DNA of 64,000 bases from Betaproteobacteria bacterium TMED82 (GTDB lineage: Bacteria; Pseudomonadota; Gammaproteobacteria; Burkholderiales; Burkholderiaceae_A). Below are positions 9,474 through 59,315 of the stretch, piece after piece; positions within the stretch are counted from its first letter, which is position 1; each line of letters begins with the position of its first letter. The notes below the pieces were generated by a model, which was given only the letters and a program-made list of their open reading frames with translations, was not told the origin of the DNA and ran no database searches. The stretch is taken from the NCBI GenBank assembly GCA_002170395.1, contig NHEJ01000007.1:215441-279440 (forward strand), given 5' to 3'. The position numbers and the translations under genes are program-made.

Positions 9474-9539
9474 AATTATATGTAAGCATTAGATTGATAG
9501 AGTCTACCTTTATGAGTTTAAATTCAAATTAGCCAGTTT

Positions 9540-12194
9540 ATGAAAAAAAATACAAAAAAGTTTTCATTGAGTTGCATTCGGGAGTCATTTACTGAATATT
9601 TCGTGGCAAACAATCATAGGGAGTTGCCTTCCAGTCCACTGGTACCTGTTAATGACAATTCGTTACTTTTTACGAACAGTGGTATGGTTCAGTTCAAAGA
9701 CTATTTTTTATCAAAAGCGAGACCTCCTTTTGAATCAGCAGTGACCGTCCAAAACTGTTTGAGAGCAGGAGGAAAGCACAACGACCTTGAAAATGTGGGA
9801 TATACAGCTCGGCACCATACTTTCTTTGAAATGTTGGGAAATTTTTCATTTGGGGCCTACTTTAAAGAAGAGTCAATTTTATATGCTTGGCAGCTATTGA
9901 CAGAAGTGTTTGATATTGAACCTGAAAAGCTATTGGTAACTGTTTATTTCGAGGATACAGAGTCTTATGATATTTGGCGAAAAAAAATAAATTTAGAGGC
10001 ACATAGAGTGATTCGCATTGGAGACCACAACGGAAATAGACATCAGAGTGATAATTTTTGGCAAATGGCGGATATTGGACCTTGTGGGCCTTGCACTGAA
10101 ATTTTTTTTGATCATGGCCCATCTGTTAAGGGAGGTCTTCCTGGTTCCTCTGATGGTGAGGGTGACCGATTTGTAGAAATCTGGAATCTAGTCTTTATGG
10201 AATATCAAAAACTTGCTAGTGGAGAATTAGGAAAGCTTCCGATTCCCTGCGTGGATACTGGGATGGGCTTGGAGAGAATTTCTGCTGTTCTACAAAATGT
10301 GACTAGTAATTATGAGATAGATGTTTTCAAGAGGTTGACGAGGAAAATTTCGAGTTTTATTGATCTAGATCAATCTCATGAGACATCATTAAGAGTGATT
10401 GCTGATCATATTAGAGCATCATGTTTTTTGATTTCAGAAAATATTGTACCGAGTAATGAGGGAAGGGGATATGTTCTAAGAAGAATTCTTCGCAGAGCAA
10501 GTCGACATGCATACAAGCTGGGAAAGAGAGATCCATTTCTACATAAATTTGTTTCGGATGTGGTTTCAGACTTTCAACAGCCAGATCAATTTGTTGAAAA
10601 CCTTAATTTGATATCGGAAACAATCTTAATGGAGGAAGAGAAGTTTTCTGAAACATTGGTCAAAGGCCTTAGAATCTTACAAGAGGAATTAGAAAAAAGC
10701 AAAACAAAGGTTTTGGACGGTAATATAGCTTTTTTACTTTATGACACTTACGGGTTTCCCGTTGAACTTACTGCGGATATTTGCAGGGAAAATGAAGTAA
10801 CTTTTAATTTGGAAAAATTCGATGAGGAAATGGCCAAGCAGAAAACAAGAGCTAAAGTTGCTAGTAAATTCGTATTAAACGAGGAGGTAGGCATTACTAA
10901 CCATTCTTCAGTCTTCACTGGTTATAACGATCAAAAAGTTTCTAGTGAAATCCTAGCACTTTTTAGCAAAGGTAAAGAGGTAAGAAGAGCTAAAGAGGGT
11001 GATCAGGTAAGCATAATTTTTGATAGAACATGTTTTTATGCAGAGTCTGGGGGTCAAGTTGGTGACACAGGAATTTTTAACTCCAGCGAAGCTACCTTTG
11101 AGGTTCTGTCTACAAATAAGGTTGGCAGAGCATTTGTTCATCACGGCATCTTACGGCAAGGGAAAATAAGTTTAAAACAACAGATGTATGGAGAGTTTGA
11201 TTTAAAAAACAGGGAGATGATAAAAAGAAATCACTCCGCCACCCATCTTCTACACTTTAGCTTAAGACAAGTACTAGGCTCCACTGTAACCCAAAAAGGT
11301 TCACAGGTGGACGCAAAGAAAACTCGATTTGATTTTGCTTACTCAAAGCCATTAACTGGAAAGCAAATTGAAGAAATCGAGAGGATAGTGAATAACGAAA
11401 TTCTCTCAAATGAAAAAACCGTTATGTCCGAGATGCCCTACGATGAAGCGATAGAATCCGGAGCTATAGGTTTGTTTGGAGAAAGATATGAAAGCAATGT
11501 CCGAGTAATGCAAATTGGATCCTCTAGAGAATTGTGCGGCGGAACTCATGTTGAGAGAACTGGAGATATTGGCTCTTTTAAAGTGTTGAGTGAGAGTGGG
11601 GTTGCTAGTGGAGTAAGAAGAATAGAAGCCATAACTGCGAACGCTGTAGTGTCTCATTTTAGAACTATTGAAAATATTTTGTCTAGATCTTGTGCTTTAT
11701 TAGGAGCCACTCCTATTAATTTAGTTGAAAGAATTGAGACAACATTAACAAGTTTAGATAAAAATGAGAAAACTCTAGCCCAAATGAATATGAAAAGCAT
11801 TAAAAGACAGATTAAGGAACTTATCGAAAAAGCAAAGAAAAACTGCGAAGACGAACCTTTTAAAATTATTGCTGATGAGATTAAGCATGTATCAGTAAAA
11901 GAGTTGAGAGAAGCCTCTGACGAAATAACTTCAGGTTGCTCTTCAAGTTTTACGGTTCTCGGTTGTGTTTTTAAGGAAAAGGTACATGTGGTTGTTCGTG
12001 TTACGAGTGATCTAATGGATAAATTATCAGCAGATTTTATAGCAAAGGAAATGGCTATAATGATTGGTGGTAAAGGCGGTGGTAAATCAAGTTTTGCCCA
12101 GGCTGGAGGGTCAATACCATCAAAATTAGAACCAGCTTTGATTAAAATTAAGAAATTTATTTTCTATAAGATTAGGAGCGTGAATGAAAATTAA
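9540..12194 (+). CDS. alaS: Alanine--tRNA ligase
   Basis: 884 aa. It has the class II core (FTNSGM, HHTFFEMLGN), the editing-domain HxxxH motif (NHSATHLL), CGGTH and a C-terminal DHHA1-like domain. Confidence 0.98.
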   Translation: MKKNTKKFSLSCIRESFTEYFVANNHRELPSSPLVPVNDNSLLFTNSGMVQFKDYFLSKARPPFESAVTVQNCLRAGGKHNDLENVGYTARHHTFFEMLGNFSFGAYFKEESILYAWQLLTEVFDIEPEKLLVTVYFEDTESYDIWRKKINLEAHRVIRIGDHNGNRHQSDNFWQMADIGPCGPCTEIFFDHGPSVKGGLPGSSDGEGDRFVEIWNLVFMEYQKLASGELGKLPIPCVDTGMGLERISAVLQNVTSNYEIDVFKRLTRKISSFIDLDQSHETSLRVIADHIRASCFLISENIVPSNEGRGYVLRRILRRASRHAYKLGKRDPFLHKFVSDVVSDFQQPDQFVENLNLISETILMEEEKFSETLVKGLRILQEELEKSKTKVLDGNIAFLLYDTYGFPVELTADICRENEVTFNLEKFDEEMAKQKTRAKVASKFVLNEEVGITNHSSVFTGYNDQKVSSEILALFSKGKEVRRAKEGDQVSIIFDRTCFYAESGGQVGDTGIFNSSEATFEVLSTNKVGRAFVHHGILRQGKISLKQQMYGEFDLKNREMIKRNHSATHLLHFSLRQVLGSTVTQKGSQVDAKKTRFDFAYSKPLTGKQIEEIERIVNNEILSNEKTVMSEMPYDEAIESGAIGLFGERYESNVRVMQIGSSRELCGGTHVERTGDIGSFKVLSESGVASGVRRIEAITANAVVSHFRTIENILSRSCALLGATPINLVERIETTLTSLDKNEKTLAQMNMKSIKRQIKELIEKAKKNCEDEPFKIIADEIKHVSVKELREASDEITSGCSSSFTVLGCVFKEKVHVVVRVTSDLMDKLSADFIAKEMAIMIGGKGGGKSSFAQAGGSIPSKLEPALIKIKKFIFYKIRSVNEN

Positions 12195-12426
12195 TGAATT
12201 AGTACCGGATGTAAAACTAGATTTAAGTGGCTTAAGTTGTCCTTTACCAGTCTTAAAAACAAAAAAAGCTCTGGCGTCAATGGAGTCAGGAATGAAAATT
12301 CAAGTAATTACTACGGACAGTGGATCTTACGACGATTTTGAATATTTTTGCACTCATGCTGGCCATACTTTGATAACCCGGGAAAAACAGAAGAAAATTT
12401 ATCTTTTTTTAATTCAATGCAAGTAG
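12184..12426 (+). CDS. TusA/SirA-family sulfurtransferase-like protein
   Basis: 80 aa with the signature LDLSGLSCPLPVLKTKKAL (CPxP active-site Cys). The start overlaps the alaS 3' end by 11 nt. Confidence 0.75.
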   Translation: MKINELVPDVKLDLSGLSCPLPVLKTKKALASMESGMKIQVITTDSGSYDDFEYFCTHAGHTLITREKQKKIYLFLIQCK

Positions 12427-12444
12427 TCTCTAGATATCCACACA

Positions 12445-13485
12445 TTATTTGTCAGCGGCTGTCAAAAACGCATCCGAAAAAAAACTTTCCTTTGGTAACT
12501 CTAGGAAATTTACAAAATCGTCAAATGCCGCTTTTATCATCAGCGGCGACCCGCAAGCGTATACCTCCATATTTTTCAAACTCTGGAAATCTTTAACTAC
12601 TGCCTGGTGAACAAATCCAGTCCTTCCCTTCCAATGTTCAGTATCTTGTTTTTCGCTTACAACTGGAATGTAAGTTAATTGAGGCATCAGCTTTTGCCAC
12701 TCAGTAGCAAGAGAATCTAAGTAAAGATCTGAAGGATCTCGTACCCCCCAATATAAAACCACATTTCTATATTTTGATCTGGCAATGCAACTTTCGACGA
12801 TAGCTTTGATCGGGGCAATTCCGGTTCCACTTGCCAGAAAAATTATATCCTTCTCACTATTCTCTCGTAAAAAAAAGGTTCCCAAAGGGCCTTCAAGCCT
12901 TAAGATATCTTTAACTTTCACTGCACTAACAGATTCTTTGTTAGCTTCGAATAAAGAATCCGTGAAGACTCCACCCGGAGTATGTTTTATATGTAGCTCT
13001 ATTAAATTATCTCTGTTGGGGATACTTGCCATCGAATAACTTCTTCTTTTTCCATCTTTCAGCAAAATATCTATGTATTGGCCGGGTAGAAATTCAAAGG
13101 TTTTATTGGAAGGCAGTTTTAATTTAACAACCGCAATATCATTAGAAACCTTCTCAATACTCTCGACCCTGCAAGGCAGTTTTTTCGGAGTGTTGGATTC
13201 TTTGGTGCTAATGAGGTTGGCTTCTATAGTGAGATCAGAAAGGGGTTTAGCAGAGCATAGAAGAATATTCTTCTTTTGGATCTCATTTTTACTAAGAGCT
13301 GTTCTTGAATGACTACCGTAATCTACCTTACCACTCACTAATGTGGCTTTACATGACCCACAGACTCCGTCCTTACAACCATAAGGAACTACAAACCCTT
13401 TCTCAAGCGCAGCTTCTAAAATAGTTTGGCTATCATTTTTAACATCGAAGGAAACGTTAGACGGCTTTAAATTTACTTGAAACAT
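12445..13485 (-). CDS. Ferredoxin-NAD(P) oxidoreductase fusion: plant-type 2Fe-2S domain plus FAD/NAD-binding domain
   Basis: The N-terminal CKDGVCGSC...C 2Fe-2S motif, the RRSYSMAS (RxYS) FAD motif and the GTGIAP NAD motif are all present. Confidence 0.8.
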   Translation of the reverse strand: MFQVNLKPSNVSFDVKNDSQTILEAALEKGFVVPYGCKDGVCGSCKATLVSGKVDYGSHSRTALSKNEIQKKNILLCSAKPLSDLTIEANLISTKESNTPKKLPCRVESIEKVSNDIAVVKLKLPSNKTFEFLPGQYIDILLKDGKRRSYSMASIPNRDNLIELHIKHTPGGVFTDSLFEANKESVSAVKVKDILRLEGPLGTFFLRENSEKDIIFLASGTGIAPIKAIVESCIARSKYRNVVLYWGVRDPSDLYLDSLATEWQKLMPQLTYIPVVSEKQDTEHWKGRTGFVHQAVVKDFQSLKNMEVYACGSPLMIKAAFDDFVNFLELPKESFFSDAFLTAADK

Positions 13486-13497
13486 TTTTATTCCAAT

Positions 13498-14664
13498 TTA
13501 AAAAAACTTGATTTTTTGAACGAAAAATAACAAAAAAAGGCAAATAAGAAGAACAGAAAGACTTGGTAATAATGCAATCAAAAGTGGCGACCAAGTATTT
13601 ATTAACCCCAAATGTGAAAATAGCCCGTTGAGCAAATGGAATCCCGTACCTATCAAGACTCCAACAAAAAGCTTCAATCCTATTGATCCGCTTCTAGTTT
13701 TTATATACGCTGCCGGCAATGCGATTAAAAGCATAGTTAGCATAACTAAAGGGTAAAAAACTCTCTTCCACAAAAGTATTTCGAAATTATCCACCTTCTG
13801 ATTTCCATCTTTTAAGTAATTAATAAAATTTTTCAAATTATAAAGTGACATTTTTTCAGGGTGAATCGTTAGAGCATCGATAGTTTCTACACTTAATTTT
13901 GTATGCAATGTAATCTGCGCAGGCTCGCTCACTAAAACATTCCCATCTTTTGATAATATGATTACTTTAGGGTTTATAAGTTTCCAATATCCTCTGAAGT
14001 TGTCAGGAGCATCAAAAAAATTATCATTTGCAGCAAAATAACCAGCAGATTCAGCACTGATCCTGCGAGTGAGAATATTATTCTGATTAAACTCGAAGAT
14101 CGTTATAAACTTAATCATTTTTTTAATATCAATGCTACTAAAGTTTACTATTCTTTCTGTATTTGGCAAAAACTCTTTATTTTCCGCAGTTGACTCTCCA
14201 ACTCTATCTCTCAGCCAATAACCCGATTTAAACTCAGAAACACTAGAAGATGATTGGTTTAAACTCTGATTTTTGCCTAAAAGTTTATTTGAGAGTGGCA
14301 TCAGCAATTCGGATAGAAATAGCGACACAACCAACAGTGGGATCCAGGCTATACAAATTATTTTGAATATTAGATAGGGAGTGAATCCTCCGACTCTCAT
14401 TGCTATGAATTCTGAAGTTGCGGCTATCGTTGCAAATGCCCATAAGCCACCAATTAAAGTGCCTATTGGTAACACCTCGTAGATAACGGTAGAAAGCTTC
14501 AGAGCTTGAATAAAAAAAATATTCCTGAGAGTAAATGTGTTATTTGAAATTGAATCAAGTTCATTAATAAAATTAAAAAAAGTTACTAGTAGGGTGAAGC
14601 CGGCAGTCATAATAAAAATCTTTTTTATTAATTCGCTAAAAATATAGAATTGTATAATTTTCAT
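13498..14664 (-). CDS. lptG: LPS export ABC permease LptG
   Basis: It has the YjgP/YjgQ permease topology (3 TM, a periplasmic beta-jellyroll region, then 3 TM). It overlaps lptF by 4 nt. The pair lies divergent from pepA, as in beta- and gammaproteobacteria. Confidence 0.85.
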   Translation of the reverse strand: MKIIQFYIFSELIKKIFIMTAGFTLLVTFFNFINELDSISNNTFTLRNIFFIQALKLSTVIYEVLPIGTLIGGLWAFATIAATSEFIAMRVGGFTPYLIFKIICIAWIPLLVVSLFLSELLMPLSNKLLGKNQSLNQSSSSVSEFKSGYWLRDRVGESTAENKEFLPNTERIVNFSSIDIKKMIKFITIFEFNQNNILTRRISAESAGYFAANDNFFDAPDNFRGYWKLINPKVIILSKDGNVLVSEPAQITLHTKLSVETIDALTIHPEKMSLYNLKNFINYLKDGNQKVDNFEILLWKRVFYPLVMLTMLLIALPAAYIKTRSGSIGLKLFVGVLIGTGFHLLNGLFSHLGLINTWSPLLIALLPSLSVLLICLFLLFFVQKIKFF

Positions 14665-15740
14665 GTTGGACCACCAAATTTTTTGTCTTCTTTAAATATT
14701 AAAAAAAAGGCTATTGTCAAGGTAAGTATAGGCAACAAGATTTGTCCTGAAAGCCAACTAATTGTCTCTTTGCTAATTAATGCTTGAATAATTCCAAGAA
14801 GATGATTTGCAAATATAAACACTAAAATAGCAGTTAGCACGTTTAATAACTGATTATTTTTATTAGACTTAAGTGCAAAAGGAATTGCCAAAAACGGAAC
14901 AGTAAGACAAAGAAGAATTGTGCCCAAACGGAAGGAAAGTTCGCCTAAATCAGAAGGGCTCTGCCGCTTAAAAAGCGTCCAGGAATTAGTGCTTTTTATT
15001 CTTGTACGGGCAGCTTGACTCTTTGGTGAGTTGTCTAACCGCATCGAGTAGCTTCCAAACTTAGTTACATCAATCCTTGGGTTGGCTTGCATAGAATGGA
15101 AGTCAATTTGAGATCCGTCTTTCAAATTTACCCAAGGTACATTATCTATGAACTCAAGACGTCCCTTGTTCCCAAGAACAATTGTTTCTTTACCATTTTC
15201 GTCTTTTGATCTAACAAAAACCAAGCCAAGGTTTAAAGAGTCACTTTTGGTTTGTTCAAAAAAAACAAGTTTTTCTCCGTTTGAAAATTCACTAAATTTT
15301 CCGGGGGAAAATTTGGCTAAGTGATGCTCTGCTCTCGATTGTTCTCTCAAAATATCAGCCTGGCTTCGGGCCCAAGGAGTTCCTAAAAGCGTTACCAACG
15401 CAGCAAAAATAGTTATCGGTAGCAAAAAGTAAGTTACTGTTGGTAGAAAATCCATAATTTTGAGACCGTTCGTCCTCCAGACCACCATTTCGTTATCGTT
15501 ATACATTCTTGAAAAACACATGAACACTGATAGGAAAGCTGTTAAGGCTGCAATCGTACCCAAGGAGCTAAAGGTTGAAAATAAAATTAAAGGTACTACT
15601 ATTTCTGGGCCAGTTTTACCGGAAGCTGCGTTTCCCAAGGTTCTTATAAGAGCCATGGTGACAACAACCGTTATAAGGCAAGAGAAAATTATGTTAGCCT
15701 GATATCGAAGTTCTTTAAGAACTGAATTTTTAAAAATCAC
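14661..15740 (-). CDS. lptF: LPS export ABC permease LptF
   Basis: It has the same fold pattern as lptG. The lptF-lptG / pepA-holC-valS arrangement is conserved. Confidence 0.85.
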   Translation of the reverse strand: MIFKNSVLKELRYQANIIFSCLITVVVTMALIRTLGNAASGKTGPEIVVPLILFSTFSSLGTIAALTAFLSVFMCFSRMYNDNEMVVWRTNGLKIMDFLPTVTYFLLPITIFAALVTLLGTPWARSQADILREQSRAEHHLAKFSPGKFSEFSNGEKLVFFEQTKSDSLNLGLVFVRSKDENGKETIVLGNKGRLEFIDNVPWVNLKDGSQIDFHSMQANPRIDVTKFGSYSMRLDNSPKSQAARTRIKSTNSWTLFKRQSPSDLGELSFRLGTILLCLTVPFLAIPFALKSNKNNQLLNVLTAILVFIFANHLLGIIQALISKETISWLSGQILLPILTLTIAFFLIFKEDKKFGGPT

Positions 15741-15781
15741 TAGTTGTATAATAATATTTTCACTTATATAGGTATTTTGTC

Positions 15782-17407
15782 ATGTCGTTACCAACTCAAA
15801 CAATAAATTCAAGAAAAGAAGCGAGTGATCCTGGAGAAATTAGAGAAAAACTAGATTTTATCGTGAGTAATAAACCCGTTGATAGGGTGTCAGCCGACTG
15901 TATTTGGCTCGGAGTCTTTTCTACAAAGGCCGGCGTTGAATTGACTCCTCCTGCTATAAATGTGGATAAGATTTCCGGTGGTTGCATTACGAAAGTGCTA
16001 AAGTCGGGGGATTTTGACGGGGCTTTAGGGTCCACGCATTTACTTAGAAATATTCCTGGCATTCCTTGCATTCGAATTCTACTTATTGGTTGTGGTGAAA
16101 AAAAAGAATTTAATGGCAAAAAATATGTGGAGTGTATTAAAAACGCTACCAATGTTATGAAAGTCCTAAAAGGTGTTAAGAAAGTGGGGTCTTTCCTTAC
16201 CGAACTACCTCTGGTTGAGGAATCAGGAGCCTGGAAAATCCAAAAGCATGTTTTCACGGTTAGTGACAGTCTTTATAAATTCGAAAGATTTAAAACAAAA
16301 GGAAAATCGGAGGCTCAGGTAAGTAATGGGAAGACTAGCGCAAAAAGCAATCAGAAAAAGAAAATAAAAATTCAATCACTCAGAATGGTAGAAATGCTTT
16401 TACCAGGGGATATGAGACCTAACGATGCAAAAATTAGTATTCTGCAGTCGGAAGCTTTATCCAGCGGTGTTGGAATGACTCGTGACTTAGGAAATTTGCC
16501 TCCAAATATATGCACTCCAGAATATTTAGCGAACACGGGAAAAAAAATGTCGAAAGAGCTTGGGTTGAAGTGTGAAATTTTTGATAAAACTGCCATAGCT
16601 AAGTTAAAAATGAATTCGTTCTTGGCTGTAGCTGAGGGATCTGTAAAAAATCCTTATCTTATTGTGATGACATATTCTGGTGGCAAAGCCAAAGAGAAAC
16701 CAAGTGTTTTAGTGGGTAAAGGTATTACGTTTGATTCAGGAGGTATATCCATTAAGCCCTCTAATGCTATGGACGAGATGAAGTATGATATGTGCGGTGC
16801 AGCAACTGTATTTGGAGCAATGAGAGCTGTTGCTGAAGCAAAGCTAAAAAGAAATGTTGTGGGAGTGGTGGTGACTTGCGAAAACATGCCGAGTGGTACC
16901 GCTACTCGGCCGGGAGATATCGTTACTTCTATGTCTGGACAAACTGTTGAGATTCTCAACACCGATGCAGAGGGACGTCTGATTCTATGTGATGCTCTAA
17001 CTTTTGTGGAGAGATTTGACCCGAAGGAGGTTATTGACATTGCGACCTTAACTGGTGCTTGTGTAATTGCGCTCGGTAGCGTAAATACAGGGCTGTTTTC
17101 GTCAAATGATGACTTAGCGGGAAGATTATTGGATGCGGGAAAAGAGTCATTAGATCCAGTGTGGAGGCTACCTTTAGAAGAAGAGTATCAGGATTTAATA
17201 AAATCCCCATTCGCTGATATGGCTAATATTGGCGGACGAGAGGCTGGAAGTGTTACTGCAGCGTGTTTTCTTTGGAGGTTTGCCAAAGCCTACCCATGGG
17301 CGCATCTTGACATTGCAGGCACGGCTTGGAAATCGGGCTCGTCGAAAAATGCTACTGGTAGGCCTGTTCCTTTACTATTTAACTTACTGAAAGACTTTTC
17401 AGATTGA
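15782..17407 (+). CDS. pepA: Leucyl aminopeptidase (M17)
   Basis: NTDAEGRL, VGKGITFDSGG and MKYDMCGAA are M17 active-site motifs. The 541-aa length includes a Lys-rich linker insertion. Confidence 0.95.
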   Translation: MSLPTQTINSRKEASDPGEIREKLDFIVSNKPVDRVSADCIWLGVFSTKAGVELTPPAINVDKISGGCITKVLKSGDFDGALGSTHLLRNIPGIPCIRILLIGCGEKKEFNGKKYVECIKNATNVMKVLKGVKKVGSFLTELPLVEESGAWKIQKHVFTVSDSLYKFERFKTKGKSEAQVSNGKTSAKSNQKKKIKIQSLRMVEMLLPGDMRPNDAKISILQSEALSSGVGMTRDLGNLPPNICTPEYLANTGKKMSKELGLKCEIFDKTAIAKLKMNSFLAVAEGSVKNPYLIVMTYSGGKAKEKPSVLVGKGITFDSGGISIKPSNAMDEMKYDMCGAATVFGAMRAVAEAKLKRNVVGVVVTCENMPSGTATRPGDIVTSMSGQTVEILNTDAEGRLILCDALTFVERFDPKEVIDIATLTGACVIALGSVNTGLFSSNDDLAGRLLDAGKESLDPVWRLPLEEEYQDLIKSPFADMANIGGREAGSVTAACFLWRFAKAYPWAHLDIAGTAWKSGSSKNATGRPVPLLFNLLKDFSD

Positions 17408-17853
17408 CAAGAGTTGATTTTTATTTCAACGTGCAGTTCGACTTGCAATTTGCATGTAGGTTTTCCAGAAAAGTTTTTTACAACAGATCTGTGCAAATCG
17501 ATAACCCACTGCTCATAAAATGTATCGATAAACAACAACTAAAGAGTCTCGATCGCCTTTTAGATTGTTTTTGTCCACGAGATTTTCTTCCGCATTCTTT
17601 GGAGGACGATGGTTCAAAAAACTCTTCTCCAATAATAATTACAGAACGCGATTGTAATAATTACTATAAATATGAACCAAATATTTTCATGAATTTATGT
17701 TTCAGTATTGATCTTGGTTTTAGCAGCTTCAACAGAGTAATTGAAATTGTTACTCGTTCAGATGAAGCAAAAAAATTTGGAAGGTCAAAATATCAGTTTT
17801 ATCGCGAACGAGGATACGAAGTCATTAATCACGATGTCAGCAAACTATCATGA
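17404..17853 (+). CDS. holC: DNA polymerase III chi subunit
   Basis: 149 aa with a chi-like N-terminus (VDFYF...). It sits in the conserved pepA-holC-valS position and has 4-nt overlaps on both sides. Confidence 0.75.
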   Translation: MTRVDFYFNVQFDLQFACRFSRKVFYNRSVQIDNPLLIKCIDKQQLKSLDRLLDCFCPRDFLPHSLEDDGSKNSSPIIITERDCNNYYKYEPNIFMNLCFSIDLGFSSFNRVIEIVTRSDEAKKFGRSKYQFYRERGYEVINHDVSKLS

Positions 17854-20825
17854 ACATTAACAAAGACTTTAGTCCTACAGATATTGAAATGTACTGGTGT
17901 GAAAAATGGGAAAAACATAAGTTATATTCGTTAAGAAACCACGGTGATGCCTCGAAACACTCGTTTAGTATTCAGCTTCCGCCGCCGAATGTAACTGGAA
18001 CTCTACACATGGGCCATGCTTTCAACCAAACGATTATGGATACTCTTATTCGTTGGAATAGAATGAAACAGGCAAATACTCTATGGTTGCCGGGAACTGA
18101 TCATGCAGGAATTGCCACCCAGATGGTAGTTGAAAGACAATTAGCAAAAAATGGGGTTTCAAAAGAAAAGATTGGTAGGGAGAAATTTCTTGAAAAAGTT
18201 TGGGAATGGAAAAAAAGCTCAGGAGGTAAAATAACTCGGCAGATGAAGAGACTGGGGTCGAGTTGTGATTGGGATATTGCATATTTTACGATGGATTCCG
18301 TCCGGTCTGAGGTTGTAAAAAAAGTGTTTGTGAAGCTATATAATCAGGGACTAATTTATCGGGGAAAGAGGTTGGTAAATTGGGATACTTCATTGATGAC
18401 TGCTGTCTCTGATCTTGAGGTAACAACTGAGGACTCTAAAGGTTTTCTGTGGGAAATTAGATATCCTCTAAAAGAAGCTCAATTTGTAGAGAACGAATCT
18501 AAATATGTCGATTCACTTACCGTAGCAACTACGAGGCCTGAAACATTATTTGGTGATGTTGCAGTAGCTGTAAATCCCAGTGATGAGAGATACATGGCCT
18601 TAGTGGGAAAAATAGCTCTTCTACCGATAGTGGGTAGAGAGCTAAGAATCATTGCGGATGACTCTGTGGATCCAGCTTTTGGAACTGGTTGTGTAAAAAT
18701 TACCCCTGCGCATGACTTTAACGATTATGAGGTTGGTCAGAGACAAAATTTAGATAGTATAAATATATTTACTCTCGATGGAAGAGTGAATGGAAATGCT
18801 CCAAAAAAATATCAGGGACTCAATCGGTTTAAGGCTAGGGAATCGATTTTAGAGGATCTGAAAAAGTCAGGATTTCTTGAGTCGGAGAAACCTCATAACC
18901 TGGTGTTAAAAAAAGGCGACCGGTCTGGTTCCATCATTGAACCTTTATTAACTAACCAGTGGTTTGTAAATGTACATAAGCAACCACTTGATAAAAATTT
19001 GGAAAAATCAAGAACGTTGGCTGAACTGGGGTTATTTGCACTTGATTCAGGACAGATCAAATTTTTTCCTGAGAATTGGGAGTCAACATATAAAAATTGG
19101 CTTTTGGAAATTCAAGATTGGTGTATTTCTCGACAACTTTGGTGGGGACATCAAATTCCTGCTTGGTATCCTGTCGATGAAAATGGTAAGGCCATAAAAG
19201 GGAGTCAATTTTTTGTTGCCAATGATAAGTCTGAAGCAGAGAAAATGGCAAAAAAATCCGGCTTTGTTGGAGATTTAGTCCAGGAGGATGATGTTCTTGA
19301 TACTTGGTTCTCTTCTGCACTGATTCCTTTTTCAAGTATTGTTGATGAAAATAAGATTTGGGATGATTCTAAGGATGTGCCTAATATTAGAGCCGGCTTT
19401 AGTTCCTTCTTGCCCTCTAGTGTTTTGGTTACTGGTTTTGACATCATTTTTTTTTGGGTAGCTAGAATGGTAATGTTGACGAGCCATTTCTGCAACTCAG
19501 TTCCGTTTCGGCATATTTACATCCATGCTTTGGTTAGAGACAGTGATGGACAAAAAATGAGTAAGAGTAAAGGTAACACCCTAGACCCAATAGATATAAT
19601 TGACGGCATTGACTTGGAGTCGTTATTAAATAAGCGTTGTAGTGGTCTAATGAACCCTGATATGAGTTCTAAAATCGTCAGTAAGACTTCAAAGGAATAT
19701 CCAAAAGGAATTCAAGCTTTCGGTGCTGATGCACTGAGATTTACTTTTACTAGTTTAGCTAGTCCAGGAAGAAACATTAATTTTGATTTATCGCGCTGTG
19801 AGGGATACAAGAATTTTTGTAATAAATTATGGAATGCTTCAAGATTTGTTCTGATGCATTGTTTTGAAAAAGATAATGGTATTACTAAGTGCGCAGGTGA
19901 TTGTGGCCCTGATGGGGAGCTTTTTTTTTCAATAGCAGATAGATGGATATTATCAAGACAGCATCAACTTTCTGAACGACTTGATTTTCTTTTAGGAAGT
20001 TATAGGTTTGATTTAGCTTCTAAGGAAATATATGAGTTTATATGGAATGAATATTGCGATTGGTATTTAGAAATGAGCAAAGTTCAACTATTCAGCCAGC
20101 GCGATAATATAAAAAGAGCCACCAGGAGAACAATGCTAAAAGTATTAGAATTTGTTCTAAGAGCCTCTCATCCTTTTATTCCCTTCATTACGGAAGAGTT
20201 ATGGCAGAAAATTGCTCCTTTGGCTGGTATCAAAATGAACTTGAGTTCGAATTCAGTTCACTCCATCATGCTTTCAAAGTACCCTATTGGTGATGCTAAA
20301 AAGGTAGATTTAGTTGCAGTAGAGCAAGTAAATTTTTTAAAAAAATTGGTTTCAAGCATCAGAACGTTGAGATCGGAGATGGGCTTATCTCCAAGTGAAA
20401 GGCCATCTGTAATTTTGATACCATCTGTTGACCAAAGTTTAAATGATATATGCAAAATAGATTTTTCGAGACAGGAATACCTCAGCGATTTATTTTTCGA
20501 GACATTGAAAAATTTAGCTAAATTACAGAAAGTAGAAGTTCTAAATAATACGCCTGAAGAAATACTCACTTGCCCAACTCATTTTGTAGAAAAGGTTAAA
20601 GTGGTACTGCTAGTTAACATTGATAAAGAGAAAGAGAAAAGTAGATTACTGAAGAAAATAACGGAGGCAAAGGAAGAAATCTTTAAATGTAAAGCCAAAT
20701 TAAAGAAAGAAGATTTTTTGAAAAAAGCCCCCGAGGTTGTCGTTCAAAGAGAAAAAGATCGGCTTCAAAAATTTTCTGATCATTTAAAGAGTATTGAAAG
20801 TCAATACAAAAATTTAGGAGCTTAA
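17850..20825 (+). CDS. valS: Valine--tRNA ligase
   Basis: 991 aa. PPPNVTGTLHMGHA (HIGH), KMSKSKGN, the CP1 editing domain and a C-terminal coiled coil are present. Confidence 0.98.
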   Translation: MNINKDFSPTDIEMYWCEKWEKHKLYSLRNHGDASKHSFSIQLPPPNVTGTLHMGHAFNQTIMDTLIRWNRMKQANTLWLPGTDHAGIATQMVVERQLAKNGVSKEKIGREKFLEKVWEWKKSSGGKITRQMKRLGSSCDWDIAYFTMDSVRSEVVKKVFVKLYNQGLIYRGKRLVNWDTSLMTAVSDLEVTTEDSKGFLWEIRYPLKEAQFVENESKYVDSLTVATTRPETLFGDVAVAVNPSDERYMALVGKIALLPIVGRELRIIADDSVDPAFGTGCVKITPAHDFNDYEVGQRQNLDSINIFTLDGRVNGNAPKKYQGLNRFKARESILEDLKKSGFLESEKPHNLVLKKGDRSGSIIEPLLTNQWFVNVHKQPLDKNLEKSRTLAELGLFALDSGQIKFFPENWESTYKNWLLEIQDWCISRQLWWGHQIPAWYPVDENGKAIKGSQFFVANDKSEAEKMAKKSGFVGDLVQEDDVLDTWFSSALIPFSSIVDENKIWDDSKDVPNIRAGFSSFLPSSVLVTGFDIIFFWVARMVMLTSHFCNSVPFRHIYIHALVRDSDGQKMSKSKGNTLDPIDIIDGIDLESLLNKRCSGLMNPDMSSKIVSKTSKEYPKGIQAFGADALRFTFTSLASPGRNINFDLSRCEGYKNFCNKLWNASRFVLMHCFEKDNGITKCAGDCGPDGELFFSIADRWILSRQHQLSERLDFLLGSYRFDLASKEIYEFIWNEYCDWYLEMSKVQLFSQRDNIKRATRRTMLKVLEFVLRASHPFIPFITEELWQKIAPLAGIKMNLSSNSVHSIMLSKYPIGDAKKVDLVAVEQVNFLKKLVSSIRTLRSEMGLSPSERPSVILIPSVDQSLNDICKIDFSRQEYLSDLFFETLKNLAKLQKVEVLNNTPEEILTCPTHFVEKVKVVLLVNIDKEKEKSRLLKKITEAKEEIFKCKAKLKKEDFLKKAPEVVVQREKDRLQKFSDHLKSIESQYKNLGA

Positions 20826-23800
20826 AAATTTCTTCAGATACTTTCCAGTATGAGATTTTTTTGAACTTATATTTTTTGGTGTATTTTGATTGATGACATG
20901 GCCCCCGTTTGAACCTCCCTCTGGTCCTAAATCTATAATCCAGTCGGCCGCAGCCCAAAACTCTAAATTATGTTCTATAACAATTACGGTATTCCCGGTA
21001 CTAACTAATTTTTTTATAGTGATCAGAAGATTTTCCACATCTGCCATATGTAATCCAATAGTTGGTTCATCTAGAATAAATAAAGTTTTCGTATGATTAT
21101 TATCTTTTTTAAGCTCCGATATCAGTTTTATCCTCTGTGATTCACCCCCCGAGAGAGTTGCACTCGTTTGGCCGAGAGTCAAGTAGCCTAAACCTAATTC
21201 AGTCAAGAGTTCAATGGGTCGCTTGATTAAAGAATGATTTTTAAAAAAAATTCTGGCTTCAGCGAAACTCATATTTAGAACATCTGAAATGCTTTTTCCA
21301 TTCCATACAATATTACGGGTTTGATAGTCGAACCTCAATCCATTACAAGCATCACATTTTATGGAAACATTTGGTAGAAAGTTCATTTGAATTTTTTCAA
21401 TTCCGTAACCTTTACAAATCTTACATCTTCCTTCACCAGAATTAAACGAAAAGTGACCGCTAGTCCAACCTTTTTCTTTAGCTTCATTTGTTTCAGAAAA
21501 AAGTTTTCTAATGCTATCCCAAATACCGATATATGTAGCAGGAGTTGATCTGGGAGTTTTTCCTATAGGGCTTTGATCTACTTCCAAAACTCTATCAAAT
21601 TTGTCCCACCCAATCACTTCCTTACAACCAATGAATAAGGTGCTTGAGGAACTATTTTTCTTTGTTTTCCTTATATGTATTTTCTGTATAAAATTCTTAT
21701 ATAGTATATCTCTTATAAGAGTGGACTTCCCACTTCCTGAAACACCTGTAACTACAGTTAAGGCTTTGGTAGGAATTTTTACATTGACTGACTTCAGGTT
21801 ATTCAAATTTGCTTTTATGATCTCTATAAAATTATCCTCGGAAAAGTAAAACTCTTCTGAGTTTAGCTTCTGTTTGTTTGGCTTATTAAGATAAATTCCA
21901 GTTATGGATTCTTTTGATTGTTTTAGGGAAGATAATTTTCCTTGAAAAACAATTTCCCCTCCAAATTTTCCTGCTGCTGGACCGATATCAATTAAATGAT
22001 CTGCAGCTGTAATTGCCGACTCATCATGTTCAACCATCACGATAGTGTTGCCTTTATCCTTTAGCTTTTTCAGAACATCAAGAAGTAAAAAGTTGTCTTT
22101 TGGATGCAGTCCTATGGTAGGTTCATCTAAAACATAACAAACTCCCCTAAGATTTGAGCCCAATTGAGATGCGAGACGTATTCTCTGTGCTTCTCCTCCT
22201 GATAATGATGGAGCTGATCTATTTAAGCTTAAATAACCCAAACCAACATTAATTAAAAATGTGATGCGACTCATAAGTTCCTCTATTAAATCCTTGGCTA
22301 TGGGATAGTGTTTGGGAGAAATTTCATTAAGGTAATTATTGAGCCATAAAGCCAGAGCGTCGACAGGTAAATTTGCTAATTGAGTAATCGTTGACTCCTT
22401 GAGATACACTGAATTCGCAATTTCATTAAGTCTGTTACCGTTGCATAAAATACATTCGGTGTTGGCTGCGTCAAAACTATTATTACTCAGACTCTGTTGT
22501 TTGGTGTATTCCTCAAAATCTAAAATGTCAGGCTCTGAATTAATTTCTCTTAATCCATCTGGAGACAAGCCGGTGCCTAAACACCCTTTGCACCAGCCAA
22601 CTTTGGAGTTATAAGAAAAATTTCTCGGTTCTAATTCTTTAAACCCAACGCCGCAACTGGGACATGATCGATAAACCGAAAAAAGTGCAGTTTTGTGTTG
22701 ACTCTTAGAGGATCGCACTTGTTTCTTGTTTGCCAACTCAATTAAAATATGGCCTTTACCTAAATTAATTGCCTCGTTTATCTTCTGGCTTAGTTGCTCT
22801 TTATTCTTACTGATGTGGAGTTCGTCAATCAGTAATTCGATGCAGTGTTCTTTATATCGATCCAAATTTGGAAATTTGTTAACTTCATAGAGAATATCAT
22901 TCACTTTGAGGTATTTGAATTTTCTGGAAGATGCCCATTTTGCCAATTCTTTGTAGGTACCCTTTCGTCTAATTACTAGCGGGACAAAAATTTGTATTTT
23001 TTTTCCATGAAATTTTCTAAAAATTTCGTCTATGATTATTTCTTTTTGTTTAGGTTCAACTGAAATATTACATTTCGGGCACTTTTGATTACCAAGTTTT
23101 AAGAAAAGTAGCCGTAGAAAGTGGTGTATTTCAGTAAGTGTACCAACAGTACTTTTAATTCCACCTCTACTCACTCTTTGCTCAATTGCAACAGTGGGAG
23201 GTATACCACTAATAAGATCTACGTCAGGTTTTGCGGCAGGCTGTAAAAACTGCCTAGCATAAGCATTAAGTGATTCAAGATACCTCCTTTGTCCTTCAGA
23301 AAAAATTATGTCAAAGGCTAAGCTTGATTTACCGCTACCAGAAACTCCGGTAATGACGGTAAGCTCATTCTGTGGTATTCGAGCAGAAATGTTCTTTAAA
23401 TTATTTTCGCGAGCATTTATGATCTCGATACTTACATCAGCATTAGTAGCTATATTGGTGGACATTTTGTTTTGATAGTTATCAGAGGAAAAAGGTTTTA
23501 GATTTTTTAGAGCTAGACCGGTATGAGTTTCTGTTTTGGCTATTTGTTTAGGTGATCCTGCCGCTACAACGCTACCTCCATTTTTTCCGGCCTCCGGACC
23601 AAGCTCAATTATCCAATCGGACTGTTGAATAAACTCTACAGAGTGTTCCACCACGATAATCGTATGTCCTTGTTCTTGAAGAGAACGTAATGCTGAAATT
23701 AAAATCTGAATGTCTGCGAGATGCAGCCCTGTGGTTGGTTCATCAAAAATGAATAAAGATTTATAATTTAACTTATTGGTTTTATAACGTTGCTTACGTT

Positions 23801-26276
23801 TACTTAGAAATCCTGCGATTTTCAACCTCTGAAGTTCACCACCGGATAATGTATTAATCGGTTGGCCAAGTTTAATATAGGCCAATCCAACAGAAACCAT
23901 AATTTCTAATTTATGCCTAATCAATTCCTCAGATAAGAAAAATTGTAAGGCTTGATTAACAGTTAATGCCAAGACATCAGAGATTGATAGATTTTTGTAA
24001 TGGATCTTAAGAATTTCAGGTTTATATCTAGTTCCTTTGCATGATTCACACTCTATGAAGATATCAGATAAGAATTGCATTTCTATCTTCTCGTAGCCGC
24101 TTCCTTGACAGGTGGGACATCTGCCATTCCCAGAATTAAAACTATAGTGAGAGGAAGAATAACCTTTCCTTTTCGACTCTTGACTCTGTGCAAAAATTTT
24201 TCTGATAACATCAAATGCACCAATGTAGAGAACTGGATTAGATCTTGACGTTTTTCCTGGGGGTGTTTGATCAATCAAAATAACTTCAGAGAAATTTTTT
24301 GCCCCATAAATTTGTTTTACAACGTTACTAGAGTTATCTGTACCACTTAATTCATCATTCACACATGCAAAGATAGTCTCAGCGAGAGTAGACTTACCGC
24401 TTCCCGATACACCGGTAAAACATGTTATATGATTCAATGGAACTTCAAGTTTGACGTTCTGCAGATTGTTTTTAGAAATTCCTTCAAATTTTAACCAATC
24501 TTTTTTGACTAAATTAGTTTTGTTTTCACTTAAATTTCTTCTGTAGTCTTTTGATAGATACTTCCCTGATATCGTGTCAGATTTTAGAAGGGACTGGAAA
24601 TTTCCCTTAAAACAAATTTTACCTCCTAACTCTCCTGGCCCTGGTCCTATTTCAAAAATCTGATCAGCGATAGATATTACTTTGGGGTCGTGTTCGACAA
24701 TTAGTACAGTGTTACCTGATGACTTTAGTTTTTCTATAATTTTTAAAAGGTTACTTATATCTCTAGAGTGTAATCCAATAGATGGCTCGTCAAGGATAAA
24801 CAGAGTATTGGTTAGGGAGGATCCCAAGGCTGTTGTTAAGTTTATTCTTTGAATTTCCCCTCCCGACAGAGTTTTAGATTGTCTGTCTAGTGTTAAGTAC
24901 CCTAACCCGACCTCTTTACAATATGTAAGTCTTGTATTGATTTCCTTGGTAATTACGTCAATAGCATTTTGTTTTCCGAAACTTATATCCTTAAAGTAAT
25001 CTATGCTCTCCAAGCGTTGTATTTCTTGCAATGCGTCATCTACTGATAAACAGAGCCATTCATCTATGCTTTTTCCAGATATTTTCCAATCTAGTGCTTC
25101 TTCCTTTAATCTACTTCCGTCGCATCTTGGACATATATCATAAGACCTATACCTTGAGAGGAATACCCGAATATGCATTTTGTAGGCTTTTTTTTCTAAT
25201 TTTGAAAAAAAACGATTTACTCCATACCATTCCTTAGACCATTTGCCACTCCAGTCCTCATCTCCCTCAAAGACCCAATTTTGATCAATTTTTGTAAGTT
25301 TATTCCAAGCAAGGTCAAGTTGAACACCTCTTCTTTTTGAATGTCTGATTAAGTCGTCGTGACAACTAAGGTAAGCAGACGATTGAAATGGTTTTATAGC
25401 CCCTTCCTCTAAACTTAGGTTTCCATTGGGAATAACCAAACTTCTACTTAATCCAATTACTCTTCCAAAACCCTTACATAATTCACATGCTCCAATAGGG
25501 GAATTAAATGAAAAAAGAGCAGGACGAGGTTCTTTGAATTCTATTTTGCAATTTGAACAGGTGAAATTGGTAGAAAATTTTTTTATGATTTTCTTTTCTT
25601 CAACATTCGCTATTTCAAAATAGCCCTTACCGGCTTTATTAGCATTTCTGACAGCCTCTATGATTCTATCAATTGGTATTTGTTTACTAACCTTGAACCT
25701 ATCCGTTATTACTTGGATTTGATCAGCACCTAACTTAAAAAATTTTGTATAGCCTTGCATAGAGAGCCAATCTTCTATTTCAGAAGTCGCAAGGGTGTGA
25801 GTTTGAAGGGTAAAAGTTATTCCTATTTTCTCTCCCTCCATTTGTTTTATCAATTTTGCAACTTTATTTAAATCGTCTCTCTTCACTGAGTTGCCACATT
25901 TATAGCAGATTAGTTCGGAGACTCTTGAGAATAGTAATTTGAAATAGTCAGAAAGCTCTGTCATTGTACCTACTGTCGACCTTGCTGTTTTGACAGGGTT
26001 TGTCTGCTCAATAGCCACGGTCGGCAAGATACCCTCGATACTCTCTACATTTGGTTTGTTTAGTCGATCTAAAAACTGCCTTGCGTATGACGAAAATGTT
26101 TCAATATATCTTCTTTGTCCCTCTGCATTTATGACATCAAAAACCAAACTGCTCTTACCGGAGCCAGATAAACCTGTGACCACTGAAATTTTATTTAAGG
26201 GGATTTCTATGGAAATATTTTTAAGGTTATTTTGTTGAGCATTCTTTACCTTTATATAAGCTGACTTTTTTTTCAT
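20814..26276 (-). CDS. Tandemly duplicated UvrA-like ABC ATPase (two complete UvrA units in one 1820-aa chain)
   Basis: Four Walker A motifs (GLSGSGKSS, GVSGSGKST, GVSGSGKSS, GVSGSGKST), four signatures (LSGGE[IQ/LQ/AQ/SQ]R) and four Walker B/D-loops (DEP[ST]xGLH) are present. UvrA zinc-module CxxC pairs occur in both halves. The second unit starts near aa 938 (nt 23465). There is no stop or frameshift between the units. Confidence 0.9.
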   Translation of the reverse strand: MKKKSAYIKVKNAQQNNLKNISIEIPLNKISVVTGLSGSGKSSLVFDVINAEGQRRYIETFSSYARQFLDRLNKPNVESIEGILPTVAIEQTNPVKTARSTVGTMTELSDYFKLLFSRVSELICYKCGNSVKRDDLNKVAKLIKQMEGEKIGITFTLQTHTLATSEIEDWLSMQGYTKFFKLGADQIQVITDRFKVSKQIPIDRIIEAVRNANKAGKGYFEIANVEEKKIIKKFSTNFTCSNCKIEFKEPRPALFSFNSPIGACELCKGFGRVIGLSRSLVIPNGNLSLEEGAIKPFQSSAYLSCHDDLIRHSKRRGVQLDLAWNKLTKIDQNWVFEGDEDWSGKWSKEWYGVNRFFSKLEKKAYKMHIRVFLSRYRSYDICPRCDGSRLKEEALDWKISGKSIDEWLCLSVDDALQEIQRLESIDYFKDISFGKQNAIDVITKEINTRLTYCKEVGLGYLTLDRQSKTLSGGEIQRINLTTALGSSLTNTLFILDEPSIGLHSRDISNLLKIIEKLKSSGNTVLIVEHDPKVISIADQIFEIGPGPGELGGKICFKGNFQSLLKSDTISGKYLSKDYRRNLSENKTNLVKKDWLKFEGISKNNLQNVKLEVPLNHITCFTGVSGSGKSTLAETIFACVNDELSGTDNSSNVVKQIYGAKNFSEVILIDQTPPGKTSRSNPVLYIGAFDVIRKIFAQSQESKRKGYSSSHYSFNSGNGRCPTCQGSGYEKIEMQFLSDIFIECESCKGTRYKPEILKIHYKNLSISDVLALTVNQALQFFLSEELIRHKLEIMVSVGLAYIKLGQPINTLSGGELQRLKIAGFLSKRKQRYKTNKLNYKSLFIFDEPTTGLHLADIQILISALRSLQEQGHTIIVVEHSVEFIQQSDWIIELGPEAGKNGGSVVAAGSPKQIAKTETHTGLALKNLKPFSSDNYQNKMSTNIATNADVSIEIINARENNLKNISARIPQNELTVITGVSGSGKSSLAFDIIFSEGQRRYLESLNAYARQFLQPAAKPDVDLISGIPPTVAIEQRVSRGGIKSTVGTLTEIHHFLRLLFLKLGNQKCPKCNISVEPKQKEIIIDEIFRKFHGKKIQIFVPLVIRRKGTYKELAKWASSRKFKYLKVNDILYEVNKFPNLDRYKEHCIELLIDELHISKNKEQLSQKINEAINLGKGHILIELANKKQVRSSKSQHKTALFSVYRSCPSCGVGFKELEPRNFSYNSKVGWCKGCLGTGLSPDGLREINSEPDILDFEEYTKQQSLSNNSFDAANTECILCNGNRLNEIANSVYLKESTITQLANLPVDALALWLNNYLNEISPKHYPIAKDLIEELMSRITFLINVGLGYLSLNRSAPSLSGGEAQRIRLASQLGSNLRGVCYVLDEPTIGLHPKDNFLLLDVLKKLKDKGNTIVMVEHDESAITAADHLIDIGPAAGKFGGEIVFQGKLSSLKQSKESITGIYLNKPNKQKLNSEEFYFSEDNFIEIIKANLNNLKSVNVKIPTKALTVVTGVSGSGKSTLIRDILYKNFIQKIHIRKTKKNSSSSTLFIGCKEVIGWDKFDRVLEVDQSPIGKTPRSTPATYIGIWDSIRKLFSETNEAKEKGWTSGHFSFNSGEGRCKICKGYGIEKIQMNFLPNVSIKCDACNGLRFDYQTRNIVWNGKSISDVLNMSFAEARIFFKNHSLIKRPIELLTELGLGYLTLGQTSATLSGGESQRIKLISELKKDNNHTKTLFILDEPTIGLHMADVENLLITIKKLVSTGNTVIVIEHNLEFWAAADWIIDLGPEGGSNGGHVINQNTPKNISSKKSHTGKYLKKFLSS

Positions 26277-27257
26277 TTAATCTAAATTAATAACAAGTTT
26301 CCCACAGTGTATAGATGATTCCATTAACTCGTGCGCTTCGTTGATTTGTTTGAAAGAAAACTCTTTAAATATATAAGGTTTTATTCTCCCTCTTTCTATT
26401 TCCGGCCAAATATATTTTTTGAGTAGCTGTATGATCCTATGTTTGTCGGAAAAACTTCTCGCACGAATCGTTGACCCAGTTATGGTCAATCTTTTTAGCA
26501 AAAGAGGAATAAAGTTAACCTCATTTCTGAATCCTTTAATGAAAGCAATTTGAACTAATGTTCCTCCAATTGTTAGACACTTTAAATTTAAATTGGTGTA
26601 GTCTCCGCCAACCATATCAAGAATAACGTCTACCCCATGACCGTATGTTTGATCCATAATAAAATCATGGAAATTTATTTCTGGGTACAAAATTGCTTTA
26701 TCCGCTCCAATTTTTTTACAAAATTCAGCTTTTTTCTTATTACGGACTGTAGTGTAAACAAAACTTCCTTTCCATTTTGCTAATTGTATTGCAGCCATCC
26801 CAACTCCGCTGCTTCCGCCATGAATTAAAACAGATGAACCTGTTTTTAGTTTACCAAGTTCGATTAAATTTGCCCATGCGGTAACAAATACCTCAGGTAA
26901 ACAGGCTGCCTGAGGAAAAGTTAAATTAACGGGCATTTTTATACAGTGAGCGGCTGGAACTACAACTTTTTCCGCATAACCACCGCCAGGAGCTAATCCA
27001 CAAACTTTATCTCCGACATTTAAAAAATGAACATTTTCACCAATTTCTTCTATTACTCCGCTCACCTCTAAACCTAGAATGGGCGAACTCCCTGGGGGTC
27101 GAGCATACTTACCTTTTTTTTGCAAAATATCAGGGCGATTTATGCCGATCGACTTTACCCTGATTAAAACATCTTCAAGTGCAACTATGGGTGAATGAAC
27201 ATCTATTATTTCTAATTTATTAGTTTTTTTATTAGGTGTCTCTAGAACTGCTTTCAT
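26277..27257 (-). CDS. qor: NADPH:quinone oxidoreductase (MDR/zeta-crystallin family)
   Basis: 326 aa. It has the GINRPD, PGLEVSG-type and GGSSGVG nucleotide-binding patterns of the Qor family. Its TAA stop abuts the ATG of the UvrA-like gene. Confidence 0.85.
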   Translation of the reverse strand: MKAVLETPNKKTNKLEIIDVHSPIVALEDVLIRVKSIGINRPDILQKKGKYARPPGSSPILGLEVSGVIEEIGENVHFLNVGDKVCGLAPGGGYAEKVVVPAAHCIKMPVNLTFPQAACLPEVFVTAWANLIELGKLKTGSSVLIHGGSSGVGMAAIQLAKWKGSFVYTTVRNKKKAEFCKKIGADKAILYPEINFHDFIMDQTYGHGVDVILDMVGGDYTNLNLKCLTIGGTLVQIAFIKGFRNEVNFIPLLLKRLTITGSTIRARSFSDKHRIIQLLKKYIWPEIERGRIKPYIFKEFSFKQINEAHELMESSIHCGKLVINLD

Positions 27258-48372: not shown

Positions 48373-48374
48373 CT

Positions 48375-48656: not shown

Positions 48657-48657
48657 G

Positions 48658-59222: not shown

Positions 59223-59315
59223 GATGTTTGAGAGAGCTTTTTATAATATCTTGTAATTAAGCCGAATTATGTTCGGTGAAAGATGTTTCTTTTAACAATT
59301 ATCGTGGGAGAACTC

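Follow-up and report, generated by a model that had tools for sequence, protein, structure and literature searches.

A single-chain tandem UvrA with complementary domain asymmetry in Betaproteobacteria bacterium TMED82 and other bacteria

We analysed a 64,000-nucleotide stretch of the metagenome-assembled genome (MAG) of Betaproteobacteria bacterium TMED82 (contig NHEJ01000007.1, positions 215,441 to 279,440 of the forward strand; hereafter the window), in which a single gene encodes an excinuclease ABC subunit A (UvrA) built from two UvrA units in one chain (Table 1). The open reading frame (ORF) starts with an ATG at 26276 and ends with a TAA at 20814-20816 of the minus strand, comprising 1820 codons with zero internal stops, and a 100% identical protein is listed at NCBI as “MAG: excinuclease ABC subunit A” of the same organism (taxid 1986669, an unclassified betaproteobacterium). 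The exact protein of 1820 amino acids (aa) was found on 18 independently assembled contigs, and five copies that were compared, each from a different ENA sample and two of them from TARA Oceans scaffolds, deviate from the window gene by 0-1 nucleotides (nt), the single nucleotide difference being synonymous. This excludes a frameshift or an overlooked stop where the units join, confirming the single uninterrupted ORF that had been claimed in an earlier note made from the sequence alone. Furthermore, a scan of GTDB with one genome per species yielded 238 confirmed stretches, the best 80 of which form the basis of all locus-level results given here, and the same uninterrupted tandem ORF is present in 77 of these 80 loci (of the others, two are truncated at contig ends and L061 was left out). 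Together, these observations refute the idea that errors in sequencing or assembly fused two neighbouring uvrA-like genes. A related explanation, in which an internal start at Met938 gives rise to two products, can point to the Met codon located within the linker at aa 938, the sole support for either version. This residue is not conserved, being replaced by Ala, Val or Leu in most family members, and a Shine-Dalgarno-like sequence is absent before it, so that we consider an origin of the tandem protein in such artefacts extremely improbable.

Both units carry the full set of nucleotide-binding and zinc-binding motifs. A motif scan located the Walker A sequence GxSGSGKS at aa 35, 622, 977 and 1511, LSGGExQR signatures at aa 470, 810, 1358 and 1708, and DEPxxGLH Walker B/D-loops at aa 496-503, 845-852, 1384-1391 and 1736-1743, which bears out the previous description of four intact ABC ATPase modules, as all four sites possess each of the three motifs. 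Likewise, the zinc-module CxxC pairs reported for both units were recovered, six per unit and thus three zinc modules each, at homologous positions (124/240, 264/382 and 720/743 in unit 1; 1066/1205, 1229/1275 and 1618/1641 in unit 2). The whole protein scores 1879.2 bits against TIGR00630 (cut-off 729.8 bits) and 1925.6 bits against NF001503 (cut-off 1147 bits). Scored half by half, with the protein split into aa 1-937 and aa 938-1820, units 1 and 2 both pass TIGR00630 singly (905 and 986 bits) and fall below the cut-off of NF001503 (927 and 1011 bits).

Each half also matches a solved class I UvrA structure end to end (3PIH for unit 1 and 9GXK for unit 2) with E-values well beyond chance, the identity of the units to solved UvrA proteins being 37-40%. 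AlphaFold2 was run on the separate units with family alignments as input, resulting in models with a predicted local distance difference test (pLDDT) of 87.1 for unit 1 and 85.2 for unit 2, and a predicted template modelling score of 0.80 for both. In Foldseek comparisons the unit 1 model matched 2R6F and 3UWX with template modelling (TM) scores of 0.80-0.83 and the unit 2 model matched 3UWX_A with a TM score of 0.80; for both models the class I structures 2R6F/3UWX ranked above the class II structures 2VF7 and 7SH1. The alignment of each half to profiles and structures, a check suggested in the earlier note, thus places both halves closest to class I UvrA. The pLDDT drops below 50 at the C-terminus of unit 1 and at the N-terminus of unit 2, and across the family, represented by an alignment of 197 sequences (the window protein, 77 proteins from GTDB species genomes and 119 from a protein search), the linker between the units varies from 19 to 74 aa (median 27) with a mean pairwise identity of 0.21.

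Table 1 Features of the tandem uvrA gene and its upstream neighbour in the window. Residue numbers refer to the 1820-aa protein; NBD, nucleotide-binding domain.
Feature	Coordinates	Strand	Remarks
Tandem uvrA gene	20814..26276	minus	1820 codons + TAA; 100% match to NCBI protein
Unit 1 (aa 1-926)	23499..26276	minus	NBD-I, NBD-II, three zinc modules; PDB 3PIH E 1.6e-215
Unit 1 UvrB-binding-type domain, diverged (aa 128-239)	25560..25895	minus	PF17760 21.5 bits, partial
Unit 1 insertion (DNA-binding) domain (aa 268-381)	25134..25475	minus	PF17755 36.9 bits
Inter-unit linker (aa 927-949)	23430..23498	minus	poorly conserved, predicted disordered
Unit 2 (aa 950-1820)	20817..23429	minus	NBD-I, NBD-II, three zinc modules; PDB 9GXK E 2e-225
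Unit 2 UvrB-binding domain, canonical (aa 1070-1204)	22665..23069	minus	PF17760 82.4 bits
Unit 2 insertion-domain remnant (aa 1233-1274)	22455..22580	minus	42-residue loop, no Pfam match
PIG3-family NAD(P)H quinone oxidoreductase (qor)	26277..27257	minus	upstream of uvrA; TIGR02824 400.8 bits

Regarding their accessory domains, the two units differ in a complementary manner. When the whole protein was searched against Pfam, the UvrB-binding domain (PF17760) was detected in unit 2 alone and the insertion domain (PF17755) in unit 1 alone. The PF17760 match of unit 2 covers profile positions 5-107 of 109; in a scan of isolated segments the corresponding region of unit 1 gave a partial alignment that stays under the cut-off of 23.3 bits, and the 42-residue stretch of unit 2 at the position of the insertion domain gave no Pfam match. 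Consequently, the assertion of two complete UvrA units had to be given up, as unit 2 is devoid of an insertion domain and the PF17760 segment of unit 1 does not reach the Pfam threshold. Though strongly diverged, the unit 1 segment is truly homologous to the UvrB-binding domain: the segments of both units align with an hhalign probability of 99.8% at 21% identity, family profiles compared with residues 114-262 of E. coli UvrA gave 68 bits for the unit 1 segment and 107 bits for that of unit 2, and the AlphaFold2 model shows the unit 1 domain with a pLDDT above 90 and the same order of secondary-structure elements as in the unit 2 domain. The insertion domain of unit 1, 114 residues flanked by the two Cys pairs of the second zinc module, is modelled with a pLDDT of approximately 90. 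Its remnant in unit 2 looks like a flexible loop in the model, because the pLDDT is below 50 over most of it (residues 305-334 of unit 2).

This distribution of domains is shared by nearly all relatives. The insertion-domain segment measures 106-127 aa in unit 1 of all 197 family members and has a median length of 38 aa in unit 2. Using the E. coli insertion domain as a probe, unit 1 scored higher than unit 2 in 196 of 197 members, and the reverse was observed with the E. coli UvrB-binding domain, for which unit 2 exceeded unit 1 in 196 of 197 (medians 42.6 versus 16.9 bits). Both probes were cut at explicit coordinates, as E. coli UvrA has no plain CxxC in its first zinc pair. Judged from these alignments, the complementary asymmetry is a trait of the whole family, with 196 of its 197 members following it. 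The catalytic positions are retained in parallel, as the Walker A Lys, the signature Ser, the Walker B Glu and the H-loop His are conserved in 193-197 of the 197 sequences at all four sites, and the Walker B Asp at three sites, the fourth having Asp or Glu. Zinc-module Cys residues are found in 189-197 sequences over all modules (196-197 for modules 2 and 3), both units keep the zinc-hairpin, and a YARQF motif is present in both, its wedge positions being invariant or at least 90% conserved across the family.

The protein search listed 8000 matches at E < 1e-50, and the best 120 of them, all 1770-1916 aa long with 47-55% identity and named UvrA, originate from Burkholderiaceae and Burkholderiales MAGs, Fibrobacter and Chitinispirillum, so that more than 100 full-length homologues exist in Burkholderiales and Fibrobacterota. 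The best 80 GTDB loci are mostly from Verrucomicrobiota, including the cultured Brevifollis gellanilyticus and Pelagicoccus species, with further carriers among Pseudomonadota, Desulfobacterales and Acidobacteriota. In L061, a locus from an uncultured Brevifollis sp. MAG, the UvrA-like matches span 7474-13065, and the longest plus-strand ORF, 2538 aa in length, contains no match to the Walker A pattern. Moreover, unit 2 was searched exhaustively against 1.84 billion representative sequences, and the 150 best matches listed are nearly all multi-unit proteins of up to 2343 aa, which means that multi-unit UvrA proteins make up at least about 150 clusters at 50% identity. According to motif spacing, the architectures among these multi-unit matches comprise a full unit combined with a unit without insertion domain, two full units, a full unit combined with a class-II-like unit, two class-II-like units (approximately 1600 aa in total) and forms with the short unit first, P0137 and P0171 being examples of such a reverse order. 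A single-unit protein of 914 aa (P0235) was also obtained, which shares 51% identity with unit 2 starting at its first residues, a value equal to that among orthologous unit 2 sequences; it could represent a stand-alone or split unit 2, or a truncated gene call.

A neighbour-joining tree of the separated units was calculated, the phylogeny of each half having been proposed earlier as a way to distinguish an ancient fusion from a recent duplication. All units 1 of the window family form one clade and all its units 2 another, and the internal topologies of the two clades mirror each other, from which it follows that both units have co-evolved as one gene. Unit 1 sequences share a mean identity of 51.5% and unit 2 sequences one of 52.9%, the mean between the units being 39.2%, and E. 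coli UvrA shares 43.8% identity with unit 1 and 46.2% with unit 2. Based on these sequence comparisons, the window family descends from one ancient fusion that spread later, and not from a recent duplication. In other multi-unit proteins (P0123, P0137 and P0171) the N- and C-terminal units are sisters adjoining E. coli UvrA in the tree, which indicates that tandem duplication of UvrA arose repeatedly and independently elsewhere, in some cases clearly more recently.

In the window, the gene is part of a housekeeping neighbourhood and not of an island, the order being polA, then glnS-qor-uvrA, then valS-holC-pepA, then lptF/lptG. The TAA stop of qor directly abuts the ATG of uvrA (TAAATG, 26274-26279), and for this reason both genes are probably co-transcribed; the 3’ end of uvrA overlaps the 3’ end of the convergent valS by 12 nt (20814-20825). 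The glnS-qor-uvrA/valS synteny is retained in a relative with only 55% identity. L083-L088 and L015 are the only loci with the qor synteny; it is missing from the other 79 related loci, leaving aside the qor match in L015, and qor was therefore rejected as a conserved functional partner, its linkage being lineage-specific. Promoter and terminator scans detected no more sites than in shuffled sequence. Coding sequence makes up 92% of the window, the median gap is approximately 20 nt, and 19 out of 44 gene junctions overlap or lie at most 10 nt apart, which fits the compact, streamlined genome that had been presumed for this organism. The small holC gene (DNA polymerase III chi) between pepA and valS is apparent only from genes called on related contigs (L083), as it is below the filter of 150 aa applied to ORFs of the window, and the lptG-lptF/pepA-holC-valS arrangement at 12445-20825 resembles the gene order of E. 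coli. A one-carbon metabolism cluster is located at 38402-43038, 46688-51603 and 59283-61127, containing a NuoF-like subunit together with the alpha subunit of a formate dehydrogenase, pqqE with its neighbours, and a dehydrogenase of the PQQ-dependent methanol/ethanol family, which suggests that the host is a marine methylotrophic betaproteobacterium. The formate dehydrogenase alpha subunit corresponds to the 938-aa ORF at 40222-43038, which had been considered as a candidate for a canonical uvrA and was rejected on this ground. Two minus-strand ORFs, at 52264-53556 (430 aa) and 61886-63403 (505 aa), matched no NCBIfam family at E < 1e-20.

The gene context also bears on the idea that the protein is an anti-phage component, either like mad3/mad8 of the MADS system or like another ABC-ATPase defence protein. 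PADLOC profiles do match the window protein (mad3 with 463 bits and mad8 with 204 bits), but E. coli UvrA, used as a control, matches them as well (342 and 124 bits), and the match therefore reflects generic UvrA homology. In addition, the flanks, with glnS, qor, valS, polA, holC and pepA as neighbours, are without other defence genes, and qor itself has no PADLOC match. The control and the gene context effectively refute an identity with MADS mad3/mad8, and a defence function of any kind seems most improbable. As a side aspect for genome annotation, any UvrA will match PADLOC mad3/mad8, a trap for false positives when the gene context is ignored.

UvrA works as a symmetric homodimer, and in canonical systems the UvrB-homology module of Mfd binds the same UvrA domain as UvrB does. 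Head-to-head UvrA dimers carry four nucleotide-binding domains (PMC5128194), two insertion domains clamp the DNA, and in C. thermocellum UvrA a wedge of Y62, Q65 and F66 within the YARQF motif probes the helix (PMC12796330). Considering that the YARQF wedge and the zinc-hairpin are kept in both units, we infer that the two units, joined by a short flexible linker, would fold onto one another and form the head-to-head UvrA dimer inside one polypeptide, with four ATPase sites, a pair of zinc-hairpins as DNA probes and a pair of YARQF wedges. The covalent pseudo-dimer proposed at the outset is the natural reading of one chain with two units, although its dimer geometry is a deduction. Such a pseudo-dimer would be asymmetric, as the DNA-clamping insertion domain would come from unit 1 only, giving a one-sided clamp, and the canonical UvrB-binding domain from unit 2 only. 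In this model the protein would scan DNA, recognise distortions in an ATP-dependent manner and hand the site over to UvrB, which would dock mainly on the UvrB-binding domain of unit 2 together with the signature-II domain of unit 1. One good UvrB dock per pseudo-dimer is structurally sensible, and the retention of exactly one insertion domain deserves attention, given the background that E. coli UvrA without its insertion domain loses damage discrimination.

Overall, we consider it reasonably probable that the protein works in nucleotide excision repair, where, as an asymmetric pseudo-dimer within one covalent chain, it would detect DNA damage and load UvrB. The canonical UvrB-binding domain of unit 2, a feature that class II non-repair paralogues lack, argues in sequence terms for this role, as does the housekeeping gene context (glnS, valS, polA, holC). 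The class I profile and structure matches of both halves, the conserved ATPase, zinc and YARQF positions and the mirrored topologies of the unit clades speak for it as well. A more specific version, which we put forward with much caution and regard as rather unlikely, is that of an obligate asymmetric sensor loading exactly one UvrB in a defined orientation, the unit 1 domain perhaps being re-purposed for a partner such as Mfd.

Several observations weigh against a role in general excision repair. The 64-kb window contains no uvrB, uvrC or second uvrA, nor do the 10-kb flanks of the gene in the 80 related loci, and no LexA box was found near the glnS-qor-uvrA operon. The loss of one insertion domain and the divergence of one UvrB-binding domain could mean a changed function. 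Furthermore, the units are 44-46% identical to E. coli UvrA, whereas units from other tandem proteins of the proteobacterial type reach 56%, and this low identity to the proteobacterial canonical UvrA points to a distinct old lineage that was probably spread by transfer, a pattern also shown by accessory paralogues.

The tandem protein might accordingly be such an accessory paralogue, with a canonical uvrA being present elsewhere in the genome and the protein doing something other than general excision repair, for instance conferring tolerance to particular adducts or DNA-binding toxins, in the manner of the class II proteins DrrC and Ecm16, or providing a specialised link to transcription-coupled repair via the diverged unit 1 domain. 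The distinctness of the lineage from proteobacterial canonical UvrA, the absence of an SOS box, the domain loss and divergence, and the probable co-transcription with the quinone oxidoreductase in the lineage of the window are in line with this explanation, as is a patchy occurrence across phyla with approximately 50% identity to both Burkholderiales and Fibrobacterota, which suggests horizontal spread. However, unit 2 keeps the canonical UvrB-binding domain, which the class II paralogues known to act outside repair do not have, the four ATPase sites and both DNA probes are strictly conserved, the genomic context is one of housekeeping genes, and the linkage to the oxidoreductase is lineage-specific and not family-wide. 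We therefore regard an accessory function as possible but not likely, and a function of the asymmetric pseudo-dimer in UvrB loading and excision repair as the reading to be preferred.

In homodimeric UvrA the individual roles of the four ATPase sites, the two insertion domains and the two UvrB docks are hard to separate, because any mutation hits both protomers. The tandem family offers a natural covalent pseudo-heterodimer in which, for 196 of 197 relatives from several phyla, a single insertion domain is combined with a single canonical UvrB dock, suggesting that one of each may be enough per dimer. As all four ATPase sites are part of one chain, they can be altered independently of one another. 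Should the obligate asymmetric sensor exist, bacterial excision repair would have a form with a mechanism of its own, relying on a single UvrB. The fusion would also free dimer formation from its dependence on protein concentration, a possible advantage for very small cells with low copy numbers. The value of these features belongs to the whole family and not to the window alone, and cultured carriers are available with Brevifollis gellanilyticus, Pelagicoccus mobilis and Chitinispirillum alkaliphilum.

With regard to previous knowledge, the window protein had already been deposited and automatically annotated, and its architecture is common, widespread and routinely annotated as UvrA, so that the finding is only modestly novel; the present analysis adds that the complementary asymmetry extends over the whole family and that the fusion goes back to one ancient event. 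Full-text searches of the literature found no paper that describes a tandem, duplicated or fused UvrA or reports experiments with one, which agrees with the earlier statement that tandem UvrA is uncharacterised as far as the searchable literature goes, and the tandem family is apparently unstudied. Searches for “class III UvrA”, the term under which duplicated UvrA had been mentioned, returned nothing relevant, the single “class III” match being Cho proteins.

Among the known classes, the closest likeness is to canonical class I UvrA (E. coli, G. stearothermophilus, T. maritima, C. thermocellum and M. tuberculosis; TIGR00630/NF001503), whose full core of two nucleotide-binding domains, three zinc modules, YARQF wedge and zinc-hairpin is found in each unit of the window protein. 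As far as sequence goes, the protein is like class I UvrA and is so named by NCBI rules, with the class I UvrB-binding domain present in unit 2 and the insertion domain absent from this unit. Whereas the class I homodimer consists of two identical chains and has two insertion and two UvrB-binding domains, the window protein joins two units of 39% identity by a 23-residue linker and, as a pseudo-dimer, would have one insertion domain and one canonical UvrB-binding domain. Class II UvrA proteins (D. radiodurans UvrA2, DrrC and Ecm16) are single-unit homodimers that lack the UvrB-binding domain and keep the insertion domain; they share with the window protein that they are ABC ATPases of the UvrA fold beyond the standard single-copy uvrA, and their structures compare with the unit models at TM scores of 0.60-0.71. 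As both units carry the fold of the UvrB-binding domain, in its canonical form in unit 2 (82 bits), the window protein does not belong to class II, and the comparison with DrrC, Ecm16 and UvrA2 drawn in the earlier note turned out to be a poor fit.

The equivalog model NF001885 (PRK00635, “excinuclease ABC subunit A”, 1809 positions) likewise describes a double-length collinear tandem of approximately 1800 residues, which we take to be the tandem UvrA of Chlamydiaceae (approximately 1786 aa and the only uvrA in those genomes). The window protein aligns to this model across the junction, with residues 8-977 corresponding to model positions 6-968, and for unit 2 alone the best alignment is with the first half of the model; with 1167.8 bits against a cut-off of 3054 bits, the protein is not a member of NF001885, and none of five representatives of approximately 1790 aa tested reached the cut-off either. 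Other multi-unit UvrA proteins, such as P0123, P0125, P0137, P0171 and the double class-II-like proteins of approximately 1600 aa, also combine tandem units in one chain, but several of them are independent and more recent duplications, whereas the window family is a separate, older fusion with a fixed complementary domain loss.

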